Assembly: GCA_034530615.2 (NCBI GenBank)
Contig: JAVRCV020000054.1
Span: 1 to 33,925, forward strand
Reading direction: 5' to 3'
Length of the DNA stretch: 33,925 nucleotides
Source of the DNA: Aulosira sp. ZfuVER01
Lineage (GTDB): Bacteria; Cyanobacteriota; Cyanobacteriia; Cyanobacteriales; Nostocaceae
Within the stretch, counting starts at the first letter, position 1. Each line of letters starts with the position of its first letter. Position numbers and translations under genes: made by a program. The notes under the pieces were generated by a model. It searched no databases, was not told the origin of the DNA, and worked only from the letters and a program-made list of their open reading frames with translations. Shown here in pieces: positions 6,221-33,740 of this stretch.

Positions 6221-6427
6221 AATTTTATGTCACGCATCTTTGACAATATAAATTTGCCACTGCTACCGATTTTGCAAGAGATGCTGAAGGTGTCTTATCG
6301 GGCAGATTTTTGCGTTTACACGCTAAGTTATACTTAGTGCATCGCCAGTCCAGAGCGATCGCTTTCAATATCGCGTTAAATAATGACAACCAAAAAGAAT
6401 TTGGTATAAGCAACAAATACCTCGAAG

Positions 6428-6538
6428 TCGTATTCAGGTACTTCAATATCGTAATCGTATTTAGATACTTCAATATCGTATTTAGGTACTCCAATATCGT
6501 TTTGAGGTACTCCAATATCGTATTCAGGTACTTCAAAG
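6428..6538. repeat. five 21-bp tandem repeats (TCGTATTYAGGTACTYCAATA)
   Basis: Units at 6428, 6455, 6476, 6497 and 6518; a 6-bp insertion TCGTAA after the first unit. Confidence 0.9.
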
Positions 6539-9409: not shown

Positions 9410-9426
9410 AAGTTATTAACCTAGTA

Positions 9427-10454
9427 ACGCGATGTGCGACTTAATATTCTGTAACAAGATCGTCGAACTGAAGTGGGTCACAATTGTGGCGATTAAGCCA
9501 GAAACAGAGAGTATGAGCTAAAATCTTGCGATTGAGACGACTGGTAAGATGCCACATATCTCTAGCTCGAATCTTCTCTATATGAAATCTCTCAACTAAT
9601 TGACCAATTACTGTTTCAATTAGGCGGCGAAAGCGCTGCATTAATCGAACTGAAGATTGACTACGAGATTCAGACATATTAGAACGCAGAGGGGTTTGTA
9701 AATTAATACCCACTCTTTCAAGTTCTCCTGACAAAAACTGACTTAAATAACCCTTATCTCCGATTAATAAACCTTTAACTCGTGTGATTAAATCCCAAAG
9801 TGCTTCTCGTTCACTACCATTTGCCGGAGTGAGGGTAAACCCACTAATAACTCCTGTACCACTAATGATTAAATGCCCATAAAACCCATAGTAGGTCTGT
9901 TTCTTGGCAGCACAAAAGCCATAATCTGCTTGGGATTTAAAACTCCGGCAGTTGGGAGCGCGACTGCAGCCACACAAAGGTATTGGTAATCCATCAATCA
10001 AATGAAGTTGCTCAGAAAATGCCCCTAAATGCTGTGCTAATTTTTGTTGTAACAGTTCCTTGTACTGCCAACAATTAGCTGCTTGACGACTAAAAGCATA
10101 GCGACTCTTTAAATGAGGAAATAGCCCTAACCAATGACGGTGAAAGTATTTCCAAATGTCTTTGTCAGCATCTATTCCCAAAAACTCTGCTACTACTTCC
10201 ATTGTTAAAACTTCACTCTCCCTTAAACTCGGAGCAAAACCTCGTCTCTTAATTGGGTATATCTGGGTGATTTCAATCAGCCCGTCGTCAACACAGCAAA
10301 ATACAGCAATGATAAACTCTTCAATAGAAAACATTTTTCCCTCATTCCACTCACTGGTAACGATTTTCTCGCTCCAGTGCGGATTGTGGGAATTTTCTTT
10401 TCAATCGTTCATACACCAAACTTGTGTAACGAAACAATAAGTCGCACATCGCGT
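9427..10454 (-). mobile_element. IS982-family insertion sequence, about 1.03 kb
   Basis: Perfect inverted repeats ACGCGATGTGCGACTTA (9427-9443) / TAAGTCGCACATCGCGT (10438-10454) enclose one transposase. Confidence 0.9.
9441..10334 (-). CDS. IS982-family DDE transposase
   Basis: LIDGLPIPLC, GFCAAKKQTYYGF, LIGDKGY and RRLIETVIGQL motifs; the stop codon lies within the inverted repeat. Confidence 0.92.
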   Translation of the reverse strand: MFSIEEFIIAVFCCVDDGLIEITQIYPIKRRGFAPSLRESEVLTMEVVAEFLGIDADKDIWKYFHRHWLGLFPHLKSRYAFSRQAANCWQYKELLQQKLAQHLGAFSEQLHLIDGLPIPLCGCSRAPNCRSFKSQADYGFCAAKKQTYYGFYGHLIISGTGVISGFTLTPANGSEREALWDLITRVKGLLIGDKGYLSQFLSGELERVGINLQTPLRSNMSESRSQSSVRLMQRFRRLIETVIGQLVERFHIEKIRARDMWHLTSRLNRKILAHTLCFWLNRHNCDPLQFDDLVTEY

Positions 10455-10693
10455 TAGCTTATCTTGAGAAACATCGCTCTCGTATTGTCAACTACAGCTA
10501 TTACCAGGCTGAACAGCTTTCTTCTATTGGCTCTGGTGCTGTCGAATCTGCTATTAAACAGATTGGAGCTAGGATGAAAATTTCTGGCGCACAATGGAAT
10601 GTTAATAGTGTTAATCACATCCTTTCTGTTCGTTGTGCTTATCTCAATGGTTTACTCGCTATTTGACTATTTCTGCCAAAAGTGGATGCTCCC
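10455..10693 (+). pseudogene. 3' remnant of an ISKra4-family transposase with its right end
   Basis: AYLEKHRSRIVNYSYYQAEQLSSIGSGAVESAIKQIGARMKISGAQW...LAI* (10457-10666), then terminal GGATGCTCCC (10684-10693). Confidence 0.85.
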
Positions 10694-13063: not shown

Positions 13064-14068
13064 TTAAATATTTACAACACAACGAAAACCAATATGACAA
13101 GTTGATGTATCAATCATTTCTGGGTGACGAGCTGCTGGGCGATAACGACGACAATAGTTGGCAGCGCAAAGAAAAGACCCCCCTTTTACAACTTTTCGGG
13201 GAATTTGAACTTCTGGAGTTCTGGAATCAATACTTTCCTCTCTAGTGCATCCTCTCGGATTAACCAGAACACAACAAGATTTTGGCTTCACAAGTTGATA
13301 ATCTTGATACCAATCGGCTGTCCATTCCCAAACATTACCGATCATGTCATAAAGTCCGTAGCCATTAGCGGGGTATGAAGCTACTGAAGTTGTACCTGGG
13401 CGATGATTCTTCAGGTTTTGCCAAGGAAACTCACCCAACCAAAAATTTGCCATAACTTTCCCCTCTGGAACTAGTTCATCTCCCCAAGCATAGGGTTTCT
13501 CTACTAAGCCACCACGGGCCGCAAATTCCCATTGCGCTTCAGTTGGTAAAGTTTTACCCGCCCAGACAGAATAGGCTTCTGCATCTTCAACAGTCACATG
13601 GACAACAGGATGGTTTTCTTTTCCCTTAATGGAACTGCCCGGCCCTTCAGGATGTCGCCAGTTAGCACCAGGTACATAAGCCCACCAATTCGCTGAGTTA
13701 AGTTCAACACGAAAATGTGGTTGCTGAAATACCAGAGAGCCAGGTACTAATAATTCTGGTAGAGCGTCTGGGTAATCTTCTAACTTGGGAGAACGTTCGG
13801 CCATAGTAATATAGCCGGTTTCTTTAACAAATCGTTGAAATTGGCGGTTCGTAACTGGAGACTGATCTATCCAGAAACCATCTATTTTGACTTGACGAGA
13901 TGGATTTTCCTCTGGATAGTGGTGGTCTGACCCCATCAAAAAGCTACCACCAGGAATCCAAACCATTCCCTTGTGTGGCGCTCTGCCTACATGACCTGGA
14001 AATTTAGACTTTTCCGACTCACTAACTAATCTTTTTGCTGGGTTGTTCTTGCATAGGTGTGGCTTCAT
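13064..14068 (-). CDS. formylglycine-generating enzyme (sulfatase-modifying factor, SUMF1 family)
   Basis: HPVVHV, LPTEAQWEFAARGG, NGYGLYDMIGNVWEW, and KGGSFLCAANYCRRYRPAAR with both catalytic cysteines; start moved to ATG 14068 (GGAG upstream, removes the overlap with the sulfatase). Confidence 0.93.
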   Translation of the reverse strand: MKPHLCKNNPAKRLVSESEKSKFPGHVGRAPHKGMVWIPGGSFLMGSDHHYPEENPSRQVKIDGFWIDQSPVTNRQFQRFVKETGYITMAERSPKLEDYPDALPELLVPGSLVFQQPHFRVELNSANWWAYVPGANWRHPEGPGSSIKGKENHPVVHVTVEDAEAYSVWAGKTLPTEAQWEFAARGGLVEKPYAWGDELVPEGKVMANFWLGEFPWQNLKNHRPGTTSVASYPANGYGLYDMIGNVWEWTADWYQDYQLVKPKSCCVLVNPRGCTREESIDSRTPEVQIPRKVVKGGSFLCAANYCRRYRPAARHPEMIDTSTCHIGFRCVVNI

Positions 14069-14145
14069 CCAACGTTGCTCCGTTGACTTGTAGTCTTTAG
14101 AGGGGACAACATATATCCCCTCATTTTCAACTCTGAATATTAATA

Positions 14146-15549
14146 TCAGGCTGGGTATTGTGCTACTGGTAACACATCCAATTGCCACTTATTAAACAAC
14201 AGTTGTAAGCGCTGGAAAGTTTCCGGGTTGCTCTCCTTGAGATCGTTCTGTTCACCTGGGTCATTGTCTAAATCGTATAGGTATTTATTTAGACCCTCAC
14301 TACTACCTTGTTGTAGGTACTTCCATTTACCGAGACGGACAGCACCTTGAATATTGATTCCCGAACGATAACGCCAGAATAAAGGGCGTGACTCAAGTGG
14401 TTTTTCTCCAATGAGAGATGGAAGTAGATTCACCCCATCTAGTTGATATCCAGGGGCTACTGGTACACGGGCTGCTGCCAGAATAGTTGCAGTCAAATCC
14501 ATTGTGATTGTTGGCTGGTCATTGACTTGATTGGGTTCAACTTTTCCAGGCCAACGAATGATGGCTGGGACACGAATGCCTCCTTCATTCAGGCTGCCTT
14601 TCCGATTCCTAAATGGCCCAAAGAAAGAGTATCGTTCACCCCCATTATCACTAACAAAAATCACTAAAGTATTGTTAGCCTGTCCAGTTTCTTCCAATGC
14701 TTTTAAGACTTGACCAACTCCATCATCGAGGCTCTTCATCATTGCTGCATAAATTTCCGGTGAGCCTCCGGCTGTGTAGTTACCGTTGCTATAGAGCGTT
14801 GTACTTAATATTTCATTACCAGGCCCTTCCCACGGCCAGTGGGGCGCATTGTAATGCAAACTCAGATAAAACGGATGATTACGAGGTTTTTTAATAAATT
14901 CAATTGCCTTTTGAGTAAACAGATCAGTGGTATAGCCATCGACATTAATTAACTGCTCGTTGTTATAGAAATCAATATCACCACTGCCATCTTTATGACT
15001 GAAATAATCAATTCCTCCACTCATGTGACCAAAGAACTGGTCAAAACCACTTTTGTTGGGGCCGTAGTTAGGTAAATAACCAAGATGCCATTTCCCTACT
15101 AACGCTGTTTCATAACCCTTCGCTTTGAGTAATGAGGCAAGTGTGGGATGTGAGGGAGGTAATCCTACGGTGCTACCAATTTGACTAGAGTTAGGCAAAG
15201 GTTCTCGTAATCCTACTTCTAGTCGAGCTGGGTAGCGACCTGTCAAGAAGCCTACTCTCGTGGGTGTGCAAACTGTTTGCGCTGAGTAGGCATTGGTAAA
15301 TCTTGCGCCCTGTCTAGCGAGACCGTCTAGGTTTGGAGTCTGATAGTCACTACGACCATAAATACTCAAATCACCCCATCCCAAGTCATCTGCCAAAATA
15401 AAAAGAATATTTGGGGTTTTATCTTGAGCATCTTTACCCGCTACTGCTTTAGAGATCAAAGTTGAGCTACCAACAGTTGTCAGCGCACTAGCAGCCGCAG
15501 TTCCTAGAAACTTACGGCGATTCATCAAGCTAACATTAAAATTTGTCAT
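14146..15549 (-). CDS. Tat-exported Cys-type (formylglycine-dependent) arylsulfatase
   Basis: Twin-arginine NRRKFLG; PNILFILADDLGWGD; CTPTR (CxPxR) followed by LTGRY; GKWHLG, APHWP, SDNG. Confidence 0.95.
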   Translation of the reverse strand: MTNFNVSLMNRRKFLGTAAASALTTVGSSTLISKAVAGKDAQDKTPNILFILADDLGWGDLSIYGRSDYQTPNLDGLARQGARFTNAYSAQTVCTPTRVGFLTGRYPARLEVGLREPLPNSSQIGSTVGLPPSHPTLASLLKAKGYETALVGKWHLGYLPNYGPNKSGFDQFFGHMSGGIDYFSHKDGSGDIDFYNNEQLINVDGYTTDLFTQKAIEFIKKPRNHPFYLSLHYNAPHWPWEGPGNEILSTTLYSNGNYTAGGSPEIYAAMMKSLDDGVGQVLKALEETGQANNTLVIFVSDNGGERYSFFGPFRNRKGSLNEGGIRVPAIIRWPGKVEPNQVNDQPTITMDLTATILAAARVPVAPGYQLDGVNLLPSLIGEKPLESRPLFWRYRSGINIQGAVRLGKWKYLQQGSSEGLNKYLYDLDNDPGEQNDLKESNPETFQRLQLLFNKWQLDVLPVAQYPA

Positions 15550-15770
15550 CAATTTGTCTTTTTAATACCTACAAACACCACAAATGTGCATGGTCAAACT
15601 AGGCTGAAGCTAGTTTGCTAAAGCAAATTACTTCAACCATTCAACAAACTATTAACTGGGGTAATGTCAACGAGGACACGCTAATTACATACCCCTGTCA
15701 TCAGTAGTTAACCAATTTTGATGATTACTGAACTAGCTTTGCTGAACAGATACTAGATAGAACAAGAATC

Positions 15771-15796
15771 TACGGTAAATCATTGGTAATACAGTA
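15771..15796. promoter_or_regulatory. 26-bp palindromic operator, copy A (upstream of the sulfatase)
   Basis: TACGGTA-AATCATTGGTAA-TACAGTA. Confidence 0.7.
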
Positions 15797-17342: not shown

Positions 17343-17657
17343 TCAACAAATAGGGAGAACAATCTCAAATTCAGTCCCCTCGGTGGACTGAGAACGCACA
17401 GTTAAAGTGCCGCGATGTTGTTGGATAATGGAATAGCAGATAAATAACCCCAACCCTTGACCACGACCAACGGGTTTTGTGGTGAAGAACGGTTCAAAAA
17501 TCCGCTCTTGGAGGCTTACAGGAATCGTACTATCTGTATTGGCGATCGCAATTCGTAACCATTCACGATCTATCACTCCAGTACGAATCCGAATTCCTGG
17601 ATGTTTGCTGCTTTGGGCATTATCTCGAATCGCATCAATAGCATTGTTAATAATCAA
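17343..17657 (-). pseudogene. C-terminal HATPase_c fragment of a sensor histidine kinase
   Basis: N box NNAIDA, F box IFEPFFTTKPVG, G2 box GQGLGL; no HisKA or sensor domain; directly abuts the IS66 fragment. Confidence 0.85.
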
Positions 17658-18205
17658 GGTGTTTCATCTATATGAATGTTAGGTTGTGTCTGTTTTACCC
17701 AACTACTTAATTCAATAACGCTCGGTTCAATTGCTTGTTGTATTCGTTCATTAGTTGCAACTAACGTCCCCAGCCCAATATCGATTTGCCCCAGTTCCCA
17801 CAACATTTCTTGTTGTTTCTCATAGGGCATATGTGCATAATTATTTACCCATCCTAAAAATGCCTGTAACGACCTTCCTAAATCTTGTCCTGGAATCATC
17901 TGTTGTGGCCAGGCGGCTGTTTGTAAATTGCCACAACACTCACACATGCAGCTTTGGCGTTGATACTCCACTATTTCTATGGGTCGTTCCACTAGTTGCG
18001 CTACCGCGTGTTTTTCTACTTTGACTGCCACAGACGCAAATGCTTTTTGACCACAGTAAACACAATTAAGAGGGCGTAGGATTTCATAACGGTCTACTCT
18101 GCCAAAGCCTTTACGGGTTTTGCCTTGATGTCCAGGCTGCCCACTTGGTTTCTTCTTCGGCTGACTCGATTCTTCTCGGGAGGGTGCTTTTTTGTTTTCG
18201 CTCAA
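17654..18205 (-). pseudogene. internal fragment of an IS66-family transposase
   Basis: KKKPSGQPGHQGKTR, CxxCG and CxCCG zinc finger, ending at HIDETP (first catalytic Asp); both ends missing. Confidence 0.88.
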
Positions 18206-24888: not shown

Positions 24889-25590
24889 ATGAACGAACTT
24901 ATTACAGCTATTCCCACCGGAATCACAGCTTTTACAGCTACCAACCTAGATGATTTAGTTATCCTCACACTGTTATTCTCTCAGGCAAATGCCACTTTCC
25001 GCCGTCGGCACATTGTAATTGGTCAGTATTTAGGCTTCTGTACTTTAGTGATTGCCAGCCTAGTTGGTTTTCTCGGAGGATTAATATTACCATCTCAATT
25101 AATTGGGCTTTTGGGTTTAGTACCAATTACCATTGGATTAAATCGCTTGCTCAATCCCGAAATGAATTCTGCTGATGAAGAATCAGAAATAGAATTATCC
25201 CATGCTTCTCCTTTCGCTAGTTTTTTATCTCCTCAAGCGTATAGCGTGGCGGCTATTACCATTGCCAACGGCAGTGATAATGTAGGTATCTATATGCCGT
25301 TGTTTGCTAACAGTGCTGTTTCTGAGTTGCTAGTAATCATTGCAGTCTTTTTATTGCTGGTAGGTGTTTGGTGTTACGTAACTTATAAACTAACCTGCCA
25401 GAGTGCGATCGCCAATTTGTTAACTCGCTATGGCAATAATTTTGTTCCTTTGGTATTGATAGGTTTAGGTGTGTTTATTATCTTAGATAGTGCTTCGCTG
25501 ACTCCAATTGCTTTGACAGCTACTTGTCTATGTTTAATGGGATTGATCAAAGTAATTCAAACTTCCAAATTCAAAACTCAAAATTTGTAA
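24889..25590 (+). CDS. CadD (cadmium resistance transporter)-family membrane protein, LysE superfamily
   Basis: FTATNLDD, GQYLGF, GLLGL.P, ITIANGSDNVGIYMPLF, VLIGLG. Confidence 0.9.
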   Translation: MNELITAIPTGITAFTATNLDDLVILTLLFSQANATFRRRHIVIGQYLGFCTLVIASLVGFLGGLILPSQLIGLLGLVPITIGLNRLLNPEMNSADEESEIELSHASPFASFLSPQAYSVAAITIANGSDNVGIYMPLFANSAVSELLVIIAVFLLLVGVWCYVTYKLTCQSAIANLLTRYGNNFVPLVLIGLGVFIILDSASLTPIALTATCLCLMGLIKVIQTSKFKTQNL

Positions 25591-25637
25591 TTGTCAAAAT
25601 GTTTTATTACTAATCATCTCAAACCAAGGAGAAAAAT

Positions 25638-26261
25638 ATGCAGTTGATCAAAATTATTCTTGTCGCTCTCGTGTTTATCTTGAATCTGACAGTTGCTCAA
25701 CCTTCCTGGGCAGGCAAGGATTTCACTAAAGGGACTGACTATGCTGAGGTAACTCAGGAACTCTATCAACTACTAAGCGTGCAAGCTAACCCAGAGCAAG
25801 CTGGCTATACACCCGAACAATTTCAAGAGAGACTATCACAATTGCAGTCTCAAAAGTATGTAATGGAAACAGCTAGAAAACGGGCGCAGTGCTTTAATCA
25901 AACTGGTGGGACTTTGGGTGTCTATGCCAATAAACCAAAAAAATATCCAACGCAACTGTACTTCTTAGCAGTAGGGCAAATCACAGATGATGATTGGGAT
26001 TGCGATGGTATCTACTTCCCCACAGGTACAAGGATAGCTTTAAATCCGAATGCTCAAGTACAAGAGTTAACTGAACCAATCGCTGTCAAGTTTGTCGATG
26101 GTACGCAGTCAATTGCAAGAACTAATCCAGCTACTGGTGCCATTGAATTAAATGTTGCACCTGCCAAAATCTTCAAGGCTGGTGAAGGTAATTGGTTGCT
26201 TCCTACTTTATCTCAGACAGATATTAACGCACAGATTCCTAGCCCACAACTCATTGACTAA
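25638..26261 (+). CDS. secreted hypothetical protein
   Basis: Sec-type signal ending AQPSWA; AAGGAG RBS; TDDDWDCDG motif. Confidence 0.8.
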   Translation: MQLIKIILVALVFILNLTVAQPSWAGKDFTKGTDYAEVTQELYQLLSVQANPEQAGYTPEQFQERLSQLQSQKYVMETARKRAQCFNQTGGTLGVYANKPKKYPTQLYFLAVGQITDDDWDCDGIYFPTGTRIALNPNAQVQELTEPIAVKFVDGTQSIARTNPATGAIELNVAPAKIFKAGEGNWLLPTLSQTDINAQIPSPQLID

Positions 26262-26327
26262 TGTTTGTTAGGCATTCAATTTTGATGTCATAAGTGCATC
26301 AATTCTAATTACACCAAATCATACTAT

Positions 26328-26353
26328 ATCCCTCCTCAGCAGGAGGGATTTTT
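26328..26353 (+). terminator. rho-independent terminator
   Basis: ATCCCTCCT-CAGC-AGGAGGGAT followed by TTTT. Confidence 0.75.
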
Positions 26354-26591
26354 CATTAATTTAAAATTGGTATAATCTATTACGGCTTTAAATTACACAA
26401 TCACTTATATAGTTTATTGGCTGTTAACCTTCAGCAGCCAAACTTTGTGCAAAATTGACATTTCTATCAAGAAACCCTCATTGCTTAGTGTACTTTGTGG
26501 CTGCTTCTTTTTTAAGAGTTAGTGCTGTTTACTGATAGTAAGTTGCTGACTCAGTAACAAAAAATAATGATAGATATCACTTTATAGTGTG

Positions 26592-26632
26592 TATAATACT
26601 TTGAACAACGGTATCTCGCCCAATATACCGTA
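26592..26632 (+). promoter_or_regulatory. -10 box followed by the 26-bp operator, copy C, upstream of sbp
   Basis: TATAAT at 26592-26597; AACGGTA-TCTCGCCCAATA-TACCGTA at 26607-26632; AAGGAG RBS directly after. Confidence 0.75.
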
Positions 26633-26650
26633 AAAAAGGAGCAATTGCTG

Positions 26651-27781
26651 ATGAGCTTGCAATATCTAGCGCAATTAGCATACTTAATTGTGGATAAAAT
26701 TTTGCAGATTATACGGCATTACCAACACATATTTGCAAGTTGGTTAAAAGTACGTAATGTTCGCAGCTTTGTGAGTTTGTTGTTGGTAGGAGCTATTTTA
26801 AGTACAGCGATCGCATCTTGTTCAGAAAGTAAAATTGCTGGACAATCTGATGTTAGGCTCAAGCTCGTTTCTTTCTCAGTTACTAAAGCTGCTCACGACC
26901 AGATAATTCCTAAATTTGTCGAAAAGTGGAAAAAAGAACACAATCAAAATGTTACTTTTGAGCAAAGTTATGGCGGTTCTGGCGCGCAAGCCGCAGCTGT
27001 AATTGCAGGTTCGCAAGAAGCAGATATAGTACACTTAGCACTGCCTTTAGATGTTAGCAAAATTCAGCAAGCAGGTTTGATTAAATCAGGTTGGGAAAAC
27101 AAATCGCCGAGAAATGGTATTGTTAGTAGATCTGTGGCGGCGATTGTAACTCGTGAAGGCAACCCCAAAGGTATCAATAGTTGGCAAGACTTAGCAAAAG
27201 ATGGCGTAACATTAATTGCAGCTAACCCAAAAACTTCTGGTATTGCTATTTGGGAATTTTTAGCTTTGTGGGGTTCGGTGACTCTAACTGGTGGCGATGA
27301 AGCAACAGCTTTAGATTATGTCACTAAAGTCTATAAAAATACACCCATTCTTACAAAAGATGCTCGTGAAGCTAGCGATTTATTTTTCCAAAAAAATCAG
27401 GGAGATGTCTTAATTAACTACGAAAACGAAATCGCTTTATCAGAACAGAATGGCTCAAAACTGCCTTATACAGTACCCCAAGTAAACATTTCCATTGACA
27501 ATCCTGTTGCTATAGTTGATAAAAACGTTGATAAACACGGTAACAGAGAAGTTGCCGCAGCATTCGTTGATTTCTTGTACTCCACAGAAGCACAGCGCGA
27601 ATTTGCTAAATTACAATATCGTCCGGTTAATCCCACCGTTAGCCAAGAAGTAGTAGCAAAATATCCACCAATCAATACTTTATTCACATCTCAAGATTTA
27701 GGTGGTTGGGATTTAATCCAGAAGAAGTTTTTTGTCGATGGGGCAATTTTTGACAAAGTGCAATCTGGCAAAAAAGCATGA
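26651..27781 (+). CDS. sbp: sulfate/thiosulfate ABC transporter substrate-binding lipoprotein
   Basis: LVSFSVTKAAH, QSYGGSG, GNPKGI..W.DL, ANPKTSG, GDVLINYENE; lipobox IASC; ATG 26651 fits the RBS better than TTG 26645. Confidence 0.92.
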   Translation: MSLQYLAQLAYLIVDKILQIIRHYQHIFASWLKVRNVRSFVSLLLVGAILSTAIASCSESKIAGQSDVRLKLVSFSVTKAAHDQIIPKFVEKWKKEHNQNVTFEQSYGGSGAQAAAVIAGSQEADIVHLALPLDVSKIQQAGLIKSGWENKSPRNGIVSRSVAAIVTREGNPKGINSWQDLAKDGVTLIAANPKTSGIAIWEFLALWGSVTLTGGDEATALDYVTKVYKNTPILTKDAREASDLFFQKNQGDVLINYENEIALSEQNGSKLPYTVPQVNISIDNPVAIVDKNVDKHGNREVAAAFVDFLYSTEAQREFAKLQYRPVNPTVSQEVVAKYPPINTLFTSQDLGGWDLIQKKFFVDGAIFDKVQSGKKA

Positions 27782-27840
27782 AATCTCATTGCACGCAACA
27801 AGCCTCAAAATTTAAATTACTTGTAAATTTTGGATAGTTT

Positions 27841-28842
27841 ATGAATCGGCGTAGCCTGTTTAAATCTAGCTGTTATCTCACAAATTTAATGTTGATTATT
27901 AGCAGTATTACTGCTTGTAACAGCGGACAAGAATTGAAAAGTCAGGTGAGTATTGATGGTGCGGCTGTGGGTTTTCCGATTTCTTTAGCAGTAGCAGAAG
28001 AATACGGTAAGGTAAAACCTGAAGCTCAAGTAAGTGTCGCCTCTAGCGGGACTGGTGGTGGAATCAGTAAGTTTTGTAATGGTGAGATTGATATTGTTGG
28101 TGCTTCTCGTACCATCAGAGATGAAGAAATTAAAAAATGTCAAAGTAAGAAGATTGAATTTGTCGAGTTACCCATAGCTTTAGATGGCATTGCTGTGATT
28201 GCTAACCGTAAAAATAACTTTGCCAAATGCCTAACTATTAAGGAATTAGATAAAATTTGGAATGCTAAATCAGACGGTAAAATTTTAAATTGGAATCAAG
28301 TAAATCCGAAATTTCCTAATCAAAAACTCAAGTTATATGCGCCAGCTTCGGATACAGGCACATTTGATTATATGACTCAAGCTGTGACTGGCAAAGCTAA
28401 GAAAGGTAGAACAGATTATACTCCCAGTCACAATCAAAACCTACTCGTACAAGGAGTTTCAGGTGATGCGACAGCCTTGGGTTATGTCGGCATATCTTAT
28501 TACATTCAAAACCAAGACAAATTAAATTTAGTAGCAGTAGAAAGCCCAACAGGAAAGTGTGAAAAACCAGTTCCAGTAGATAACGTCATCAAAAATACCT
28601 ACACGCCCTTATCGCGTCCTTTATTCATCTATGTGAGTAAAAAATCTTTAGATAATAAACCAGCAGTTAAAGAGTTTGTCGATTTTTATTTAGATAATTC
28701 TTGGAAATGGGTAGATAGCGTTGGTTATGTAGCGCTACCAGATGAAGCTTACGTCAAAGTGAAACAAAAATTTGCGAAAGGCGAAACTGGGACAAAATTT
28801 AAAAAATCCAAACCTGGGGAACCAATCACCAACTTTATTTAA
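27841..28842 (+). CDS. pstS: PstS/SphX-family substrate-binding lipoprotein with a non-canonical binding motif
   Basis: SGTGGG..KFC, ASR.I, PIALDGI, GTFDY, YTPLSRPLFIY; lipobox ITAC; IDGAAVG in place of IDGSSTV. Confidence 0.88.
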   Translation: MNRRSLFKSSCYLTNLMLIISSITACNSGQELKSQVSIDGAAVGFPISLAVAEEYGKVKPEAQVSVASSGTGGGISKFCNGEIDIVGASRTIRDEEIKKCQSKKIEFVELPIALDGIAVIANRKNNFAKCLTIKELDKIWNAKSDGKILNWNQVNPKFPNQKLKLYAPASDTGTFDYMTQAVTGKAKKGRTDYTPSHNQNLLVQGVSGDATALGYVGISYYIQNQDKLNLVAVESPTGKCEKPVPVDNVIKNTYTPLSRPLFIYVSKKSLDNKPAVKEFVDFYLDNSWKWVDSVGYVALPDEAYVKVKQKFAKGETGTKFKKSKPGEPITNFI

Positions 28843-28868
28843 ATTATGCTGGATGCAAGAGAATTTTT

Positions 28869-29810
28869 ATGCAAAATATAAATCCTCAAGACGACTCATA
28901 TCAAAGGTTTAGACAATCACTAGAAAAAAATGTCTCAGACGATATCGTAGAAAAGTTAATTGGGATAATTTTATTTGCTTGCGCGTTAGTTTCCGTATTC
29001 ACTACTTTCGGCATTGTCCTCATTATCTTTAAAGAGGCATTTGGCTTTTTCCAAAAAGTTTCTTTCGCCCAGTTCTTTCTTGATACTAAGTGGACGCCTT
29101 TATTTGCCGAGCAACATTTTGGCGTTTGGCCTTTGATTAATGGTACGTTTTTAACAACAGCGATCGCAATGGCTGTGGCTATCCCTTTAGGCCTATCTTC
29201 GGCAATTTATTTGAGTGAATATGCTCAACCTAAAGTAGCAGCAATTTTACGCCCAGCGGTAGAACTTTTAGCGGGAATACCAACTGTAGTCTATGGTTAT
29301 TTTGCATTACTATTTGTCACACCATTACTACGAAATGTCATTCCTTTAGAATTATTCAACGCTTTAAGTGCAGGATTAATGATGGGAGTAATGATTACTC
29401 CTACTGTTGGTTCTATTAGCTTAGATGCTATTCAAGCTGTTCCCCGTTCTTTGCGAGAAGGCGCTTATGCTTTAGGCATTACTAAACTAGAATCTATTTT
29501 TAGAGTTGTGTTACCAGCCGCCCTTTCGGGGATTATCGCTTCGATTATTTTGGGAATTTCGCGCGCTGTCGGCGAAACAATGACTGTCGTAATTGCTGCG
29601 GGACAACAACCGAAACTAACTATTAACTTCGCAGAATCAGTAGAAACCATGACAGCTTATATGGCACAAATTTCTGGTGGAGATAGCCCCCGTGGTAGCC
29701 TAAATTTCCAGACTTTATATGCTGTAGGCGCGCTTTTGTTTTTAATTACCCTAGCTTTGAACATTATTAGTTACTGGGTTGCTAACCGATTTAAAGAAAA
29801 ATACGATTAA
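28869..29810 (+). CDS. pstC: phosphate ABC transporter permease
   Basis: AIYLSEYA, VELLAGIPTVVYG, SRAVGETM. Confidence 0.95.
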   Translation: MQNINPQDDSYQRFRQSLEKNVSDDIVEKLIGIILFACALVSVFTTFGIVLIIFKEAFGFFQKVSFAQFFLDTKWTPLFAEQHFGVWPLINGTFLTTAIAMAVAIPLGLSSAIYLSEYAQPKVAAILRPAVELLAGIPTVVYGYFALLFVTPLLRNVIPLELFNALSAGLMMGVMITPTVGSISLDAIQAVPRSLREGAYALGITKLESIFRVVLPAALSGIIASIILGISRAVGETMTVVIAAGQQPKLTINFAESVETMTAYMAQISGGDSPRGSLNFQTLYAVGALLFLITLALNIISYWVANRFKEKYD

Positions 29811-29815
29811 TAAAT

Positions 29816-30715
29816 ATGGCTACAACTTACCAACGAGATGATTATCTAGATTCGACAGCAGAATTTACTGATAACATTGAAAAAAGAGAAACTTTAGGAA
29901 AGGTATTTGAAATCCTTTTTTTAATAGGTTTGTTGATTGGCTTATTCGTCCTCGCCTTACTACTTTTTGATATTTTCCGCGACGGATTAGCCAGATTTTT
30001 AACGCCTGGTTTTCTCACAGAAACCCCTTCTCGTTTCCCCGATGAAGGTGGTATCCGTCCGGCAATTATTAGCAGTATCATCTTAGGAATTGTTGTGATT
30101 GTAGTAACAGTTCCAATTGGGGTAGGAGCTGCTTTATATTTAGAAGAGTATGCACCGAGAAATTGGTGGACAGCGATTATTGAGATTAATATCAGTAATT
30201 TAGCTGGAGTACCTTCTATTGTTTATGGCTTGCTAGGTTTAGGCGTTTTTAATTATTTGCTAGGATTTGGCCCAGCTTTAATTTCTGGTGCATTGACTTT
30301 ATCTTTATTGTCATTACCAGTAATTATAGTCACAGCTAGAGAAGCAATTCGAGCCGTTCCGAATTCCCTCAGATATGCGTCTTATGGGTTAGGTGCTACC
30401 AAATGGAAAACTATCAGTAGCCATGTTATACCCTATGCTATTCCTGGTATCTTAACAGGAGTAATTATTTCGATATCTCGTGCTATTGGAGATGCTGCAT
30501 CTTTAATTGTTGTTGGTGCTGTGGGTTTTCTCACGTTCAACCCTGGTTTATTCCAGAGATTTATGGCGTTACCCATTCAAATCTACAGTTACATTACTCG
30601 CCCAGAACCAGGTTTTGCAAATGCAGCAGCAGCGACAATTATTGCGTTGTTACTCTTAATTTTAGCTTTGAATGGGGTAGCAATTTATATTAGACAACGC
30701 TTCACTATTCATTAA
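29816..30715 (+). CDS. pstA: phosphate ABC transporter permease
   Basis: AALYLEEYA, NLAGVPSIVYGLLG, REAIRAVP, SRAIGD. Confidence 0.95.
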   Translation: MATTYQRDDYLDSTAEFTDNIEKRETLGKVFEILFLIGLLIGLFVLALLLFDIFRDGLARFLTPGFLTETPSRFPDEGGIRPAIISSIILGIVVIVVTVPIGVGAALYLEEYAPRNWWTAIIEINISNLAGVPSIVYGLLGLGVFNYLLGFGPALISGALTLSLLSLPVIIVTAREAIRAVPNSLRYASYGLGATKWKTISSHVIPYAIPGILTGVIISISRAIGDAASLIVVGAVGFLTFNPGLFQRFMALPIQIYSYITRPEPGFANAAAATIIALLLLILALNGVAIYIRQRFTIH

Positions 30716-30784
30716 TTGCTCGCCAAATAACTTGGATTTTTCTTTGATTAATTAGGCATTGTTAAATAGTAGGAGATTCGGAAA

Positions 30785-31615
30785 ATGCCCTATAGCAGCA
30801 ACAGCAGAAATCAATCAGATAGTGCTACACTAAACCAAAACAACACCGTATTTGATGTTGAAGGTGTGAAAGTATACTATGGGGGATTTCTAGCACTTCT
30901 AGATGTCTATTTGCAGATTCCTGAAAAACAAATAGTTGCTTTTATTGGCCCTTCAGGATGCGGTAAAAGTACCCTACTACGCTGCTTCAACCGCATGAAT
31001 GATTTGATTCCCGGTGCTAAGGTAGAGGGTAGGTTAAATTACCGCGATCGCAATATTTATGACCCCAGAATTAATTCGGTTAAATTACGCCGCCAAGTCG
31101 GGATGGTTTTTCAAAGACCGAATCCTTTCCCGAAATCAATATATGAAAATATTGCTTTCGGCCCGCGTGCTAATGGCTATAAAGGTAATCTGGAGGAATT
31201 AGTCGAAGATTCTCTTAGACGTGCTGCAATTTGGAACGAAGTCAAAGATAAACTCAAAGAGAAGGGTACTGCGTTATCTGGCGGACAACAACAACGGCTG
31301 TGCATTGCTAGAGCAATCGCTATGAAGCCAGATGTATTATTAATGGATGAACCATGCTCTGCTCTCGATCCCATTTCTAGCCGTCAAGTAGAAGAACTAT
31401 GCTTAGAACTCAAGGAGCAATACACCATAATTATGGTGACGCATAATATGCAGCAAGCTTCTAGAGTCGCAGATTGGACAGCTTTCTTCAATACAGAAAT
31501 AGACGAACATAGCAAGCGTCGGGGAAAATTAGTCGAGTTTAGTCCTACAGAGGAAATGTTCAGTTCTCCTCAAACTAAAGAAGCCGAAGACTATATTAGT
31601 GGACGCTTCGGTTAA
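30785..31615 (+). CDS. pstB: phosphate ABC transporter ATPase
   Basis: [46 protein letters not shown]. Confidence 0.96.
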
Positions 31616-31804: not shown

Positions 31805-32596
31805 CTAATAAACTAACTTTAAGCTCACCATCATCAATATAAAGTAAACCATAAACCGCAGTGGTTTTTGCGGCACAATTTGACAGACTTTAGCCCCTAG
31901 CAATACTCCTGGTACGGAGCCAAGCCATATAGGTAATACTAAATTCCAATCAACTGTTCCCAAGGTGAGATGTCCAATAGCAGTGAATAGTAACAGAATT
32001 GCTGCTTGGGAAATATCTGTACCCACTAACTTCCGCGCATCCAAACGAAAAAATGCAATCAGCACCAAGGCAAACATGGAGCCAGAAGAGACACTTGTTA
32101 GACCGACAACACAGCCTAAAAATGCTCCTATGCTTACCGTCTGTAAGCGGCCTAATTGAGTAGTTAAGTCAAATTTGGGTAGTTCAGGTAGTTGCAATTG
32201 TGGAAAGAAGGTCAATAGCAGCATTTGCACTAATGCCAAAACAGTGACTGATAAAATCGCCACACCCAACAAATGCAGCATAATGCTGTTCAGGTTAGAT
32301 TCGGCCTTGAATTTAATCAGGTGCAAGATTCCTACTCCCAACAAAGAGCCAGGAACGCTCCCCAAAGCCAGCCATTTTACTACTTCTGTATCGAGGGTTT
32401 GTTGTTGCCAATGTTTGACACTACCAACGACTTTCATTAACGTCGCCGCCACAACATCAGAACTGACTGCTACCGCAGGTGGTACTTGAAAAACAAAAAT
32501 TAACATTGGAGTGATGAGAGAAGCACCACCAATTCCTGTCAGACCAACGATAATACCGACAAGAAAGCTGAAAAGAGGCAACAATAAAAAATCCAT
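31805..32596 (-). CDS. TauE/SafE (TSUP) sulfite-exporter-family membrane protein
   Basis: VGLTGIGGASLITPML, repeated VGLTSVSSG, LVGTD, GSVPG; AGGAG RBS. Confidence 0.92.
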   Translation of the reverse strand: MDFLLLPLFSFLVGIIVGLTGIGGASLITPMLIFVFQVPPAVAVSSDVVAATLMKVVGSVKHWQQQTLDTEVVKWLALGSVPGSLLGVGILHLIKFKAESNLNSIMLHLLGVAILSVTVLALVQMLLLTFFPQLQLPELPKFDLTTQLGRLQTVSIGAFLGCVVGLTSVSSGSMFALVLIAFFRLDARKLVGTDISQAAILLLFTAIGHLTLGTVDWNLVLPIWLGSVPGVLLGAKVCQIVPQKPLRFMVYFILMMVSLKLVY

Positions 32597-32730
32597 ACTC
32601 CTGTCCTTAACCGGGGTTTTGCGAATGTGACTTTGTTTAGCTGAAACTGAAAGATTGGTTGTAACGCTGTTGTGTAGAGGTTTTCATGTAAGTGCAAGTT
32701 TGGAATTACTGCTGAGATAACTTAACTAAG

Positions 32731-32756
32731 TGCTAATATCCGACCAATTTACCGTA
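32731..32756. promoter_or_regulatory. 26-bp operator, copy D (upstream of tauE)
   Basis: Reverse complement TACGGTAAATTGGTCGGATATTAGCA; the first 10 bp are identical to copy A. Confidence 0.6.
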
Positions 32757-32915
32757 TTTTAAAGTGAAAGATAGTGAAAGTCTATTATTTTTGTGAATTT
32801 TGATTAAATACTAGTTTTTATTTATACTTATCATAAATAAGTTTTTTGCGAGCAATAGGATTTTGGAATATATTGACACTTCAGTAGTAGACTAAATGGC
32901 GGTATCTCAAAAAAC

Positions 32916-32941
32916 TACTTTAATCCAAGTTAAATACCGTA
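32916..32941. promoter_or_regulatory. 26-bp operator, copy E (just before the PAP2 start)
   Basis: TACTTTA-ATCCAAGTTAAA-TACCGTA. Confidence 0.55.
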
Positions 32942-32948
32942 CTTGACT

Positions 32949-33740
32949 ATGCCAGAGTTAGAAAAAGCTAATGTTGAAATTCAACAAACAGTAACTTTGT
33001 TAAAGTCGCGCTCACCCATCGGGTTTGTGCAAAAATTGTTAATTACCTACTGGCGTTCTTTGTTGCTGCTGTTCATAGCAGTATATGTACCACTACAAAT
33101 TTTTGGACTGCTGGCGTTAAGGCTGCGGTACAACGAGGGTGGTTTCCCTTGGGATTTACCGATATTGCTGACTATTCACTCTTTAGCACAGCCACATTTA
33201 GATGTATTCGCCGCGATATTGACAAAATTGGGTTCTTTTTGGACTGTGTTACCGATTTTGAGTGCGATCGCACTTATTTTACTAGTCCAACGTCGCTGGC
33301 GATCGCTTACTTATTTACTGATTACTGCTGCTGGTAGTGCTATTCTCAAACGCACAGCCAAAGAATTTTGGCACAGAGTACGTCCTGATTTGTGGACTTC
33401 AGTTGCACCAGAGTTTGATTATTCCTTTCCCAGTGGTCATGCTATGACGAGTATGACGTTGATTGCTATTTTGGTAGTTTTAACTTGGGGTAGTGTTTGG
33501 TGTCGGTTAACAGTGATTTTGGGTAGTGTGTATATCTTCGCCATTGGCTGGACACGCCTATATCTAGGGGTACATTTTCCCAGTGACATTATTGCAGGTT
33601 GGATGGTGGCGATCGCTTGGGCTGTTGGTGTGAGTTTAATTATTCGACCATTATCACAGTCAGCAAATATGACAACTGAAAAACCAGTGAGTGAAACGAT
33701 ATTACTTCCTAAAGAACAGCAATTGCTCAATAAAGAATAA
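32949..33740 (+). CDS. PAP2-superfamily membrane phosphatase
   Basis: K.....VRP, SFPSGH and TRLYLGVHFPSD motifs; ATG 32949 (TTG 32943 is an alternative start). Confidence 0.93.
   Translation: MPELEKANVEIQQTVTLLKSRSPIGFVQKLLITYWRSLLLLFIAVYVPLQIFGLLALRLRYNEGGFPWDLPILLTIHSLAQPHLDVFAAILTKLGSFWTVLPILSAIALILLVQRRWRSLTYLLITAAGSAILKRTAKEFWHRVRPDLWTSVAPEFDYSFPSGHAMTSMTLIAILVVLTWGSVWCRLTVILGSVYIFAIGWTRLYLGVHFPSDIIAGWMVAIAWAVGVSLIIRPLSQSANMTTEKPVSETILLPKEQQLLNKE

Follow-up and report, generated by a model that had tools for sequence, protein, structure and literature searches.

The window, a stretch of 33,925 nucleotides from Aulosira sp. ZfuVER01, carries the genes sbp, pstS, pstC, pstA and pstB, called as open reading frames head to tail on the + strand (Table 1). 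Gene products are characterized with NCBIfam models, and bit scores are given as score/curated cut-off. Sbp passes the sulfate-binding model TIGR00971 (239.3/155.5) and falls below the cut-off of the enterobacterial subfamily models NF008022 and NF008106. PstS passes the PstS family model TIGR02136 (258.2/206.6). The equivalog cut-offs are passed by PstC (TIGR02138, 277/196.45), PstA (TIGR00974, 261.8/193.45) and PstB (TIGR00972, 372.8/343.2).

Table 1. Features of the sbp-pst locus and of the related palindromes in the window.
Feature	Position	Strand	Description
Terminator-like hairpin	26328..26349	+	9-pair stem, then TTTTTCATT; closes the upstream cadD/unknown gene pair
TATAAT -10 box	26592..26597	+	Conserved upstream of orthologues
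26-bp operator-like palindrome, copy 1	26607..26632	.	1 mismatch to consensus; between -10 box and ribosome-binding site
sbp	26645-27781 (ORF); in-frame ATG at 26651 (gene 26651..27781)	+	Sbp-family lipoprotein paralogue of the pst-linked clade; TSGIAIWE replaces TSG-x-ARWN
pstS	27841..28842	+	PstS paralogue; S-type scaffold, A41-A42-V43 replaces the Ser-Ser-Thr phosphate loop; lipoprotein signal
pstC	28869..29810	+	PstC-type permease; E. coli R237 and E241 equivalents retained
pstA	29816..30715	+	PstA-type permease; R220 equivalent retained; GETAPL motif changed to GDAASL
pstB	30785..31615	+	PstB-type ATPase, TIGR00972
Palindrome copy 2	15771..15796	.	1 mismatch; upstream of sulfatase/FGE genes 13064-15552 (-)
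Palindrome copy 3, weaker	32916..32941	.	2 mismatches; between tauE (31805-32596, -) and PAP2 gene (32943-33740, +)

The original prediction placed sbp directly 5' of pstS-pstC-pstA-pstB, with no terminator in between and no cysT, cysW or cysA in the window. All of this agrees with the present analysis. The sbp-pstS gap (27781 to 27841) measures 59 bases, and a scan of it lists no terminator-like and no promoter-like site; no CysT, CysW or CysA is present among the 27 window ORFs scanned. The five genes would be co-transcribed as one unit, and this unit would have its own promoter, since the terminator-like hairpin ends the upstream gene pair. An Rfam scan of positions 26200-28000 (E up to 1) returned only a Phe-leader match of 22.4 bits, which is at chance level, so no known RNA family is recognized in the 5' region. 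The flanking cadD, unknown 207-aa, DUF1003, tauE and PAP2 genes were considered as parts of the module and rejected because they are common to only a few close relatives.

The predicted promoter begins with the -10 box, and a palindromic operator would follow directly: AACGGTATCTCGCCCAATATACCGTA, ten bases past TATAAT. The palindrome consensus is TACGGTA-N12-TACCGTA, 26 bp in length. The same palindrome had been claimed for the sulfatase and tauE genes of the window. The first of these copies is present, 219 bases ahead of the point where the sulfatase gene starts. The second is also present in the tauE/PAP2 intergenic region, but it has two mismatches and lies nearer PAP2, right at the start of that gene. 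Both operator-adjacent PAP2 genes match the phosphatidylglycerophosphatase B and undecaprenyl-diphosphatase models far below cut-off.

At up to one mismatch, the genome of the strain holds 9 sites at spacing 12 versus 0, 0, 0 and 3 at spacings 10, 11, 13 and 14, an excess that argues against chance. These sites include the promoter between the divergent canonical sbp and sbp-cysTW, a sulfatase, tauD, an ABC permease/ATPase pair and a luciferase-type monooxygenase adjoining an FMN reductase. Two mismatches are present in the sites next to the gene for an NMT1-type binding protein, next to FGE with a sulfatase, next to an OprB porin and between PAP2 and tauE-cadD. Luciferase-type monooxygenases and sulfonate-type transporters are among the genes so marked. 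Judged by its neighbours, the palindrome marks the putative sulfur-scavenging regulon of Aulosira sp. ZfuVER01, and the claim that the sbp-pst operon shares a putative operator with sulfur-acquisition genes now extends to the canonical sulfate transporter promoter. In the best 80 Sbp-relative loci (1.06 Mb), 62 sites are present at spacing 12 versus 1, 0, 2 and 0 at other spacings. Of the 63 pst-linked loci in this sample, 55 have a site upstream of sbp, as do 10 of the 14 cysTW-linked loci; 8 of the 63 have no operator at up to two mismatches. In other families the palindrome is likewise found ahead of canonical sbp-cysTW. Because it reads the same in either orientation, it could act as an RNA hairpin instead of a DNA operator. 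No description of it was found in the open-access literature, nor of any regulator or binding site for sulfur regulation in filamentous cyanobacteria.

The operator would be bound by a dimeric regulator, and the simplest candidate is a repressor that leaves the DNA when sulfur is limiting. As the operator is common to sulfur-scavenging genes, such a regulator would switch on the operon along with the uptake of sulfate, sulfonates and sulfate esters. A regulator of the Rrf2 family is only a lead, suggested by gene neighbourhood. Four Rrf2 genes are present in the genome, one of them within a sulfur island (contig C56) and preceded only by a 4-mismatch palindrome site. In Calothrix PCC 7716 an Rrf2 gene lies directly upstream of sbp. 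The Rrf2 gene that adjoins sbp at locus L090 is 59% and 52% identical to the copies on contigs C73 and C80, versus 40% to the C56 copy. Another sulfur island, on contig C27, has no recognisable transcription factor among its genes. The arrangement resembles the regulon of CymR (Rrf2 family) of Bacillus subtilis in having a long palindromic site (~26 bp) near sulfur-uptake promoters; it differs in that the regulator of the Aulosira palindrome is a candidate Rrf2 lead only and the motif was not found described.

Phosphate control is not apparent at the promoter. The Pho box of the SphR/PhoB regulon consists of tandem 8-bp repeats with an 11-bp period. A crude tandem-repeat score (maximum 24) was applied upstream of the genes, with random 400-nt windows as the null. 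No Pho box was detected upstream of sbp by this crude scan, where the best score was 18/24 versus a random mean of 16.9 (sd 1.1), thus about one sd over the mean. Two paralogous pst operons served as positive controls and do have a box: the operon on contig C53 scores 20, and that on C32 has three visible TT[AT]ACCT repeats, 11 bases apart. The predicted lack of a tandem SphR/Pho box at the promoter is borne out.

Linkage of sbp with pst genes is conserved in two samples, the best 80 Sbp-relative loci and a PstS-seeded set of 250 other genomes drawn evenly from the order. In the first sample, pst genes adjoin sbp in 63 of 80 loci (sbp first in 60, pstSCAB first in 3). In the second, this PstS clade is carried by 17 of 250 genomes (55-88% identity; next best match 51%), with sbp adjacent in 14 of the 17, again in both gene orders. 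Culturable carriers include Tolypothrix tenuis PCC 7101, Fischerella muscicola PCC 7414 and Trichormus variabilis ATCC 29413. A single SH-aLRT 100 branch of the Sbp tree splits 65 rows (64 pst-linked) from 18 (16 cysTW-linked), and the pst-linked clade is never beside cysTW in the 80 loci. Occurrence in 63 of 80 loci, in two orders and with one Sbp clade, argues that the association is not due to chance. Two exceptions are observed: locus L030 has sbp-pstS and no pstCAB within 5.8 kb, and at locus L111 the Sbp is of the canonical ARWN form and its partner PstS reads GGSVG. Open-access literature yielded no paper linking sbp with pst genes and none reporting a sulfur-induced Pst. Pst genes and binding motifs go unmentioned in the accessible part of the Synechocystis sulfur-starvation microarray paper (PMC2491639). 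In Chlorogloeopsis PCC 9212 both sbp genes are in canonical clusters, so the co-culture transcriptome of that strain (PMC11423583) is uninformative on the module. Among sequencing runs, three contain this DNA in full; all three are DNA runs, perhaps those behind the assembly, and no RNA run was listed.

The absence of CysTW from the window does not extend to the genome: a canonical cluster with a divergent sbp and sbp-cysT-cysW is present on contig C3, and canonical CysT (CysT/CysW) is present in 16 of the 17 other carrier genomes. The sbp-pst module is accessory, not a replacement for the CysTW system. With CysT so widely retained, the Sbp paralogue could still serve CysTW. It would then feed sulfate or thiosulfate to a CysTW encoded elsewhere and be merely co-regulated with an independent Pst part that has its own substrate. 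Docking usually takes place between a binding protein and a permease of the same family, and the direct sulfate-contact residues of Sbp are retained, both of which agree with this explanation. It is nevertheless quite improbable, as the pst-linked Sbp forms a separate single clade with fixed changes that is never found beside cysTW, the canonical clusters are already supplied with one or two sbp genes, and the link persists through a change of gene order.

The fixed changes in Sbp are second-shell. Window Sbp retains Ser45, Ser130, Gly131 and Ala173 (Salmonella protein numbering), and the direct sulfate contacts are the same in pst-linked and cysTW-linked clades. After the start of the Ser130 helix, Arg134 is replaced by Ile and Asn136 by Glu; position 134 is Ile/Val in 64/64 pst-linked rows versus Arg/Lys in 16/16 cysTW-linked rows. 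W192 is replaced by Tyr, as in all cyanobacterial Sbp compared. The protein would be a derived Sbp-family binding protein.

Window PstS belongs to the S-type family, with Ser where E. coli has Asp56; retention of the Asp56 equivalent was considered and rejected on this residue. Residues 41-43, 71, 89, 115 and 172-174 correspond to SphX 15-17, 45, 63, 89 and 146-148, the numbering differing by 26 throughout, and all SphX-equivalent residues are retained except S15, S16 and T17, which are A, A and V. S89 at the D-type Asp position and the D115/R259 pair (SphX S63, D89, R231) are present, and T71 and T172-G173-T174 complete the retained S-type phosphate contacts. The N-terminal Thr/Ser of the Asp-Arg-Thr triad, contributed by the Ser-Ser-Thr loop, is absent. 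All sbp-linked PstS rows have the variant loop, G-[AG]-A-V-G except for one row with G-A-V-V-G. Among the best 150 representatives from a library of 1.84 billion proteins, Ser-Ser-Thr is present in 120 of the 136 loop stretches shown and the variant loop in only one (P0124, 64% identical). PstS has lost the hydroxyl loop and with it the proton-accepting Thr on which HPO4(2-) binding by S-type PstS proteins depends. Three observations in the accessible part of PMC13614923 bear on this loss: Thr17Ala of SphX abolishes Pi binding, the equivalent Ser13Ala of C. perfringens PBP-1 loses only ~30-fold affinity, and Thr148 of the SphX-type site can take over part of the proton-acceptor role. Weak phosphate binding by window PstS may remain, since the other contacts are retained and Ser13Ala costs PBP-1 only that much affinity. 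The clade-wide loss of a loop that includes the Thr whose Ala mutant abolishes SphX binding supports a changed substrate; these residues were absent from the original prediction, and the support they offer is independent of it.

The permease subunits combine conserved and altered positions. In E. coli, Pi transport requires the charged residues R237 and E241 of PstC and R220 of PstA, which lie in the membrane. Their equivalents all align and are identical in the window proteins. The signature R-x-x-G-E-T-A-P-L that follows PstA R220 is absent, and R-A-x-G-D-A-A-[SC]-L is present instead in 60 of 61 orthologues; E. coli PstA and the three PstA paralogues of the strain have GETAPL or AETAAL.

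Conservation of these charged residues, of the equivalog scores of PstC, PstA and PstB and of most S-type phosphate contacts, with Thr148 as partial substitute, would also suit a module that continues to import phosphate but has come under the control of the sulfur regulon, with the Sbp paralogue and altered PstS as lower-affinity or differently tuned phosphate binders. Two PAP2 genes beside the same operator point the same way. Sulfolipid and phospholipid are exchanged under sulfur limitation, and replacement of sulfolipid by phosphatidylglycerol would raise the need for phosphate. This explanation is considered unlikely. Loss of all three Ser-Ser-Thr hydroxyls is fixed across the clade and occurs in no other family representative among the best 150, and the corresponding Thr17Ala of SphX is a null mutant for binding. 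An Sbp-family gene held beside pst in two gene orders is left unexplained, and three other pst systems are already present in the genome.

The lost hydroxyl donors would also fit an anion with one oxygen fewer, e.g. phosphite, and S-type PstS proteins are described as less selective. The cargo might accordingly be an oxyanion from which the cell gains no sulfur (phosphite, arsenate, selenate, molybdate or tungstate), with the operator belonging to a broader stress regulon. The probability of this is low: each annotated gene beside a strong operator site is of sulfur-acquisition type or in a sulfur island, and in other families, too, the operator lies ahead of canonical sbp-cysTW.

The preferred reading, with about an even chance of being correct, is a Pst-type importer that is induced by sulfur limitation and no longer has phosphate as its substrate, the new one probably being a sulfur oxyanion. 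PstC, PstA and PstB would form the Pst-type ABC importer, and one or both lipoprotein binding proteins would deliver to PstCA, Sbp docking included. Phosphate uptake would no longer be the main role of the module; the likelier cargo would be a sulfur oxyanion that is fully ionised or has fewer oxygens (sulfate, thiosulfate or sulfite). The full combination of a switch from phosphate to sulfur oxyanion, loading by lipoproteins of two families and control by a previously undescribed 26-bp sulfur operator, widespread among filamentous cyanobacteria, is proposed tentatively, at somewhat less than even probability. A complex prediction of PstC, PstA and mature Sbp (35-row alignments), run without controls, scored 0.00 and counts neither way.

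Two known systems are comparable. The pst1 cluster of Synechocystis sp. PCC 6803 has the order sphX-pstS1-pstC1-pstA1-pstB1-pstB1'; both binding proteins are of the PstS family and bind phosphate, and control is by SphS/SphR. The window operon is likewise a Pst-type ABC importer behind two binding-protein genes, and its PstS has the S-type scaffold of SphX, in which Ser takes the place of the D-type Asp, Pro that of the Arg, and the Asp-Arg pair is present. It differs in the Sbp family of its first binding protein, a PstS without the Ser-Ser-Thr loop, the lack of a visible Pho box and an operator common to sulfur genes. The Sbp/CysP-CysTWA system (E. coli, Salmonella; sbpA-cysTW of Synechococcus) shares with it an Sbp protein that passes TIGR00971 with the four conserved contact residues and, as predicted for the window operon, two binding proteins feeding one permease and membership of a sulfur regulon. 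In contrast, the window permease and ATPase are PstC/PstA/PstB instead of CysT/CysW/CysA, Sbp carries the changes at 134 and 136 and belongs to a clade away from cysTW, and the second binding protein is from a different family.

If the substrate is a sulfur anion, the module would represent a natural specificity change in the best-studied anion-binding fold, by removal of the proton acceptor through which phosphate is distinguished from sulfate, and one permease would be served by binding proteins from two families. The operator offers a starting point for work on how filamentous cyanobacteria regulate sulfur acquisition. Annotation pipelines name these genes 'phosphate ABC transporter', and whenever the capacity for phosphate uptake is counted in Nostoc, Tolypothrix, Fischerella, Microcoleus and lichen cyanobionts, the total includes a system that possibly does not carry phosphate.

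The sbp-pst operon consists of five ORFs on one strand of the window, with products that all exceed the curated NCBIfam cut-offs (table below). The database names of the operon proteins are those of phosphate transporter parts. The sbp frame begins TTG-CTG-ATG, and in the alignment its ATG matches the start kept in relatives. The Sbp and PstS N-termini, judged from sequence, are lipoprotein-type signals ending in Cys. Genes upstream are closed by a terminator-like hairpin. As the original prediction stated, sbp stands directly ahead of pstSCAB, with a spacing of 59 bases in which neither a terminator-like nor a promoter-like site was found by scanning; the predicted absence of CysT, CysW and CysA likewise held among the other window ORFs scanned. 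Searches of the open-access literature gave no description of the sbp-pst link, of a sulfur-regulated Pst system or of the palindrome; an account in a subscription journal is possible.

Positions of the operon, its control sites and neighbouring or related features (window positions unless a contig or locus is named)
Feature	Position	Strand	Remark
Malectin-domain protein	248-4186		1312 aa
Repeat array	6406-6536		inside minus-strand ORF
Insertion sequence-like element	9425-10456
DDE transposase gene	9441-10334	-
Gene fragments	17343-18205
CadD-family and ~210-aa genes	24889-26261; C27:43839-46095; C56:52608-56020
Terminator-like hairpin	26328-26349
Palindrome	26607-26632		upstream of sbp
Operon	26645-31615	+
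Sulfate-binding protein (sbp)	start 26651, frame from 26645	+	TIGR00971, 239.3 bits (cut-off 155.5)
PstS-family protein	second gene	+	TIGR02136, 258.2 bits (cut-off 206.6)
PstC	third gene	+	277 bits (cut-off 196.45)
PstA	fourth gene	+	261.8 bits (cut-off 193.45)
PstB	fifth gene	+	372.8 bits (cut-off 343.2)
tauE and PAP2 genes	31805-33740; C56:50592-52526		divergent
CysT/W-like permease domain	C49:304026-304679
Rrf2-family gene with sbp-pstSCAB	L090:5933-8113		Calothrix sp. PCC 7716

The assembly (8.03 Mb, 83 contigs, the window being C54) carries a canonical sulfate cluster, sbp<->sbp-cysT-cysW, on contig C3, besides an orphan pstS and three further pst systems, to whose products the window proteins show no more than 45-61% identity. 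The sbp-pst module is thus a divergent addition to these systems rather than the sole route for phosphate or sulfate. On contig C49 a CysT/W-like permease domain lies within a longer open frame, and similar ORFs occur in three other genomes (G124, G062, G225), the frames being about 605-623 aa long; this may represent fusion of a permease with another domain, possibly as part of the sulfate system.

The five-gene module is conserved. In the 80 best loci encoding Sbp relatives, where the window pst genes and the genome's cysT and cysW were sought alongside, pst genes adjoin sbp in 63 (sbp first in 60, pstSCAB first in L020, L059 and L072) and cysT-cysW in 14; three are short or unclear. The nearest relatives at the window locus are Tolypothrix tenuis PCC 7101 and Calothrix brevissima NIES-22. 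A quick maximum-likelihood Sbp tree has a branch with SH-aLRT 100 dividing 65 rows (64 pst-linked and one from a 2.9-kb contig) from 18 (16 cysTW-linked and two others). A second sample, an even draw of 250 further genomes of the order queried with the window PstS, gave matches of 55-88% identity in 17, the next best match being 51%. There sbp adjoins pst genes at 14 of the 17 (first in 6, last in 8), and the remaining three loci are ended on one side by the contig end. CysT is above the cut-off in 16 of the 17 carrier genomes; the one without it is an assembly in 760 contigs with 90% completeness. Locus L053 stops at pstS. In Nostocales cyanobacterium HT-58-2 (L030), sbp and a variant pstS adjoin and pstC, pstA and pstB are absent from the next 5.8 kb; the binding-protein pair may persist there without an adjacent permease.

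When 55 orthologous regions upstream of sbp are aligned together with that of the window, TATAAT is conserved; TACGGTAT-N10-ATACCGTA follows some ten bases further on, and then a ribosome-binding site. Two loci alter both palindrome arms together (ACAGT...ACTGT). The simplest reading is an operator for a protein, overlapping the start of transcription; the palindrome may instead act as an RNA hairpin. No Rfam family matches the operon's 5' region. Scanning the genome with TACGGTA-N(10-14)-TACCGTA at up to one mismatch gave nine sites at spacing 12 versus 0, 0, 0 and 3 at 10, 11, 13 and 14. On C3 one of the nine lies at the promoter from which the canonical sbp genes diverge; in the window, sites adjoin the sulfatase/FGE pair and the sbp-pst operon. 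Others neighbour an ABC permease/ATPase pair, a TauD-family dioxygenase, and a luciferase-type monooxygenase accompanied by an FMN reductase. The last three are among unnamed small genes of C27, a 60-kb contig rich in genes for NMT1-type binding proteins, luciferase-type monooxygenases, TauD, TauE and sulfatase. The operator is thus common to the sbp-pst operon and sulfur-acquisition genes. At two mismatches, where each other spacing gives a background of roughly a dozen or more matches, a subset of sites adjoins genes for an OprB porin, an FGE/sulfatase pair and two kinds of binding protein, one NMT1-type and one phosphonate-bd-type, the latter beside an acyl-CoA-dehydrogenase-type gene; the two PAP2<->tauE regions of the genome also have such sites, and about ten more exist. 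The palindrome had been predicted to be shared with the sulfatase and tauE genes: this stands for sulfatase/FGE at up to one mismatch, and for tauE only at two.

Across the 80 loci (1.06 Mb), 62 sites with up to one mismatch occur at spacing 12 versus 1, 0, 2 and 0 at the others. With up to two mismatches, a site lies just upstream of sbp in 55/63 pst-linked and 10/14 cysTW-linked loci, including Microcoleus, Kamptonema and Coleofasciculus. The palindrome is thus probably a widespread cyanobacterial sulfate-transport operator, present also on the sbp-pst operon. The operon is without a recognisable Pho box, as predicted: a crude scan upstream of sbp and in the sbp-pstS gap found nothing above background; the pst operons on C53 and C32 have tandem repeats. 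In Calothrix sp. PCC 7716 an Rrf2-family regulator gene lies directly upstream of sbp-pstSCAB, with a two-mismatch palindrome 357 bases ahead of it and a Cys/Met PLP enzyme after the operon; it is a lead to the regulator of the palindrome.

The best solved relative of the window PstS is the Planctomyces phosphate-binding protein 4jwo (243 bits), which reads DGSSTVFP versus DGAAVGFP in the window protein; its two closest genome paralogues read DGSSTV[FY]P. All aligned sbp-linked PstS rows have the variant loop, DG[AG]AVGF except one DGAVVGF. Of 136 aligned stretches printed for the top 150 representatives (50% clusters) in a library of 1.84 billion proteins, 120 have S-S-T and one, P0124, 64% identical to the window PstS, has the variant loop. 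The phosphate loop is lost, and its loss fixed, in the PstS clade. A 2026 structural study (PMC13614923) places Synechocystis SphX in the "S-type" class, with phosphate contacts Ser15, Ser16, Thr17, Thr45, Ser63, Ser146, Gly147 and Thr148. Its Asp89-Arg231-Thr17 triad takes up the HPO4(2-) proton, and SphX with Thr17Ala no longer binds phosphate; in C. perfringens PBP-1 the loss from the equivalent Ser13Ala is about 30-fold, Thr148 being able to substitute partly; and the N-terminal Thr is highly conserved among S-type proteins (PMC13614923). The available portions of that study make no mention of such a loop variant. Window residues A41, A42, V43, T71, S89, D115, T172, G173 and T174 map to SphX positions at a constant offset of 26, and R259 to Arg231 at 28. 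The scaffold is thus intact, and the three loop hydroxyls, the proton acceptor among them, are gone clade-wide. Four library proteins (P0107, P0110, P0123, P0125; 573-707 aa) are fused double phosphate-binding proteins: each is a tandem of two complete S-type PstS domains, and neither domain departs from the normal S-S-T.

E. coli PstC R237 and E241 and PstA R220 are needed for Pi transport, and their equivalents are kept in the window PstC and PstA. The motif following R220 is GDAA[SC]L in 60 of 61 PstA orthologues, GETAPL in E. coli and two own paralogues, and AETAAL in the third. Salmonella sulfate-binding protein contacts its ligand through Asp11, Ser45, Ser130, Gly131, Gly132, Ala173 and Trp192 (PMC7177696); the sulfate-contact positions are identical between pst-linked and cysTW-linked cyanobacterial Sbp. 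Position 134 is Ile or Val in 64/64 pst-linked rows versus Arg or Lys in 16/16 cysTW-linked rows. In pst-linked Sbp, Asn136 is mostly replaced by Glu, and Ala at position 11 by Ser. The second sample has Ile at 134 in 10 of 14, one (L111) keeps ARWN, and three were unresolved by the search pattern.

As an observation the sbp-pst system is well supported; its function is hypothetical. Sulfur limitation would turn the operon on, and the substrate would no longer be mainly phosphate. Because the SphX triad accepts the HPO4(2-) proton, loss of the acceptor would be as expected for a fully ionised anion (sulfate, thiosulfate) or an oxygen-poorer one (sulfite). Sbp may dock on PstCA or on CysTW. The strongest rival reading is that the system still imports phosphate and serves the cell when sulfur is limiting; the retained phosphate contacts and the two PAP2 genes behind the same operator agree with it.

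In the window, tauE and PAP2 diverge around a weak operator copy, and the arrangement is duplicated on C56 (protein identities 96% and 85%). On three contigs, always in a sulfur island beside tauE, a CadD-family gene precedes an unnamed ~210-aa gene that matches no Pfam or NCBIfam entry. In a Chlorogloeopsis co-culture, sulfate transporters and "cadmium resistance transporters" are reported as enriched together among up-regulated genes (PMC11423583). The pair may serve sulfur metabolism rather than cadmium resistance. The DDE transposase gene lies between 32-nt inverted repeats (84% complementarity) in what looks like an intact insertion sequence. A 104-aa HATPase_c histidine kinase piece directly adjoins one of 183 aa that weakly matches IS66 transposase; as only these fragments are present, a gene broken by insertion is suggested. 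The Malectin-domain protein has three such domains and a glucose/sorbosone dehydrogenase domain, and its DNA contains near-identical repeats ~804 bases apart (95% over 300 nt). The repeat array has five copies with a period of ~21 nt, inside an ORF of 103 aa.
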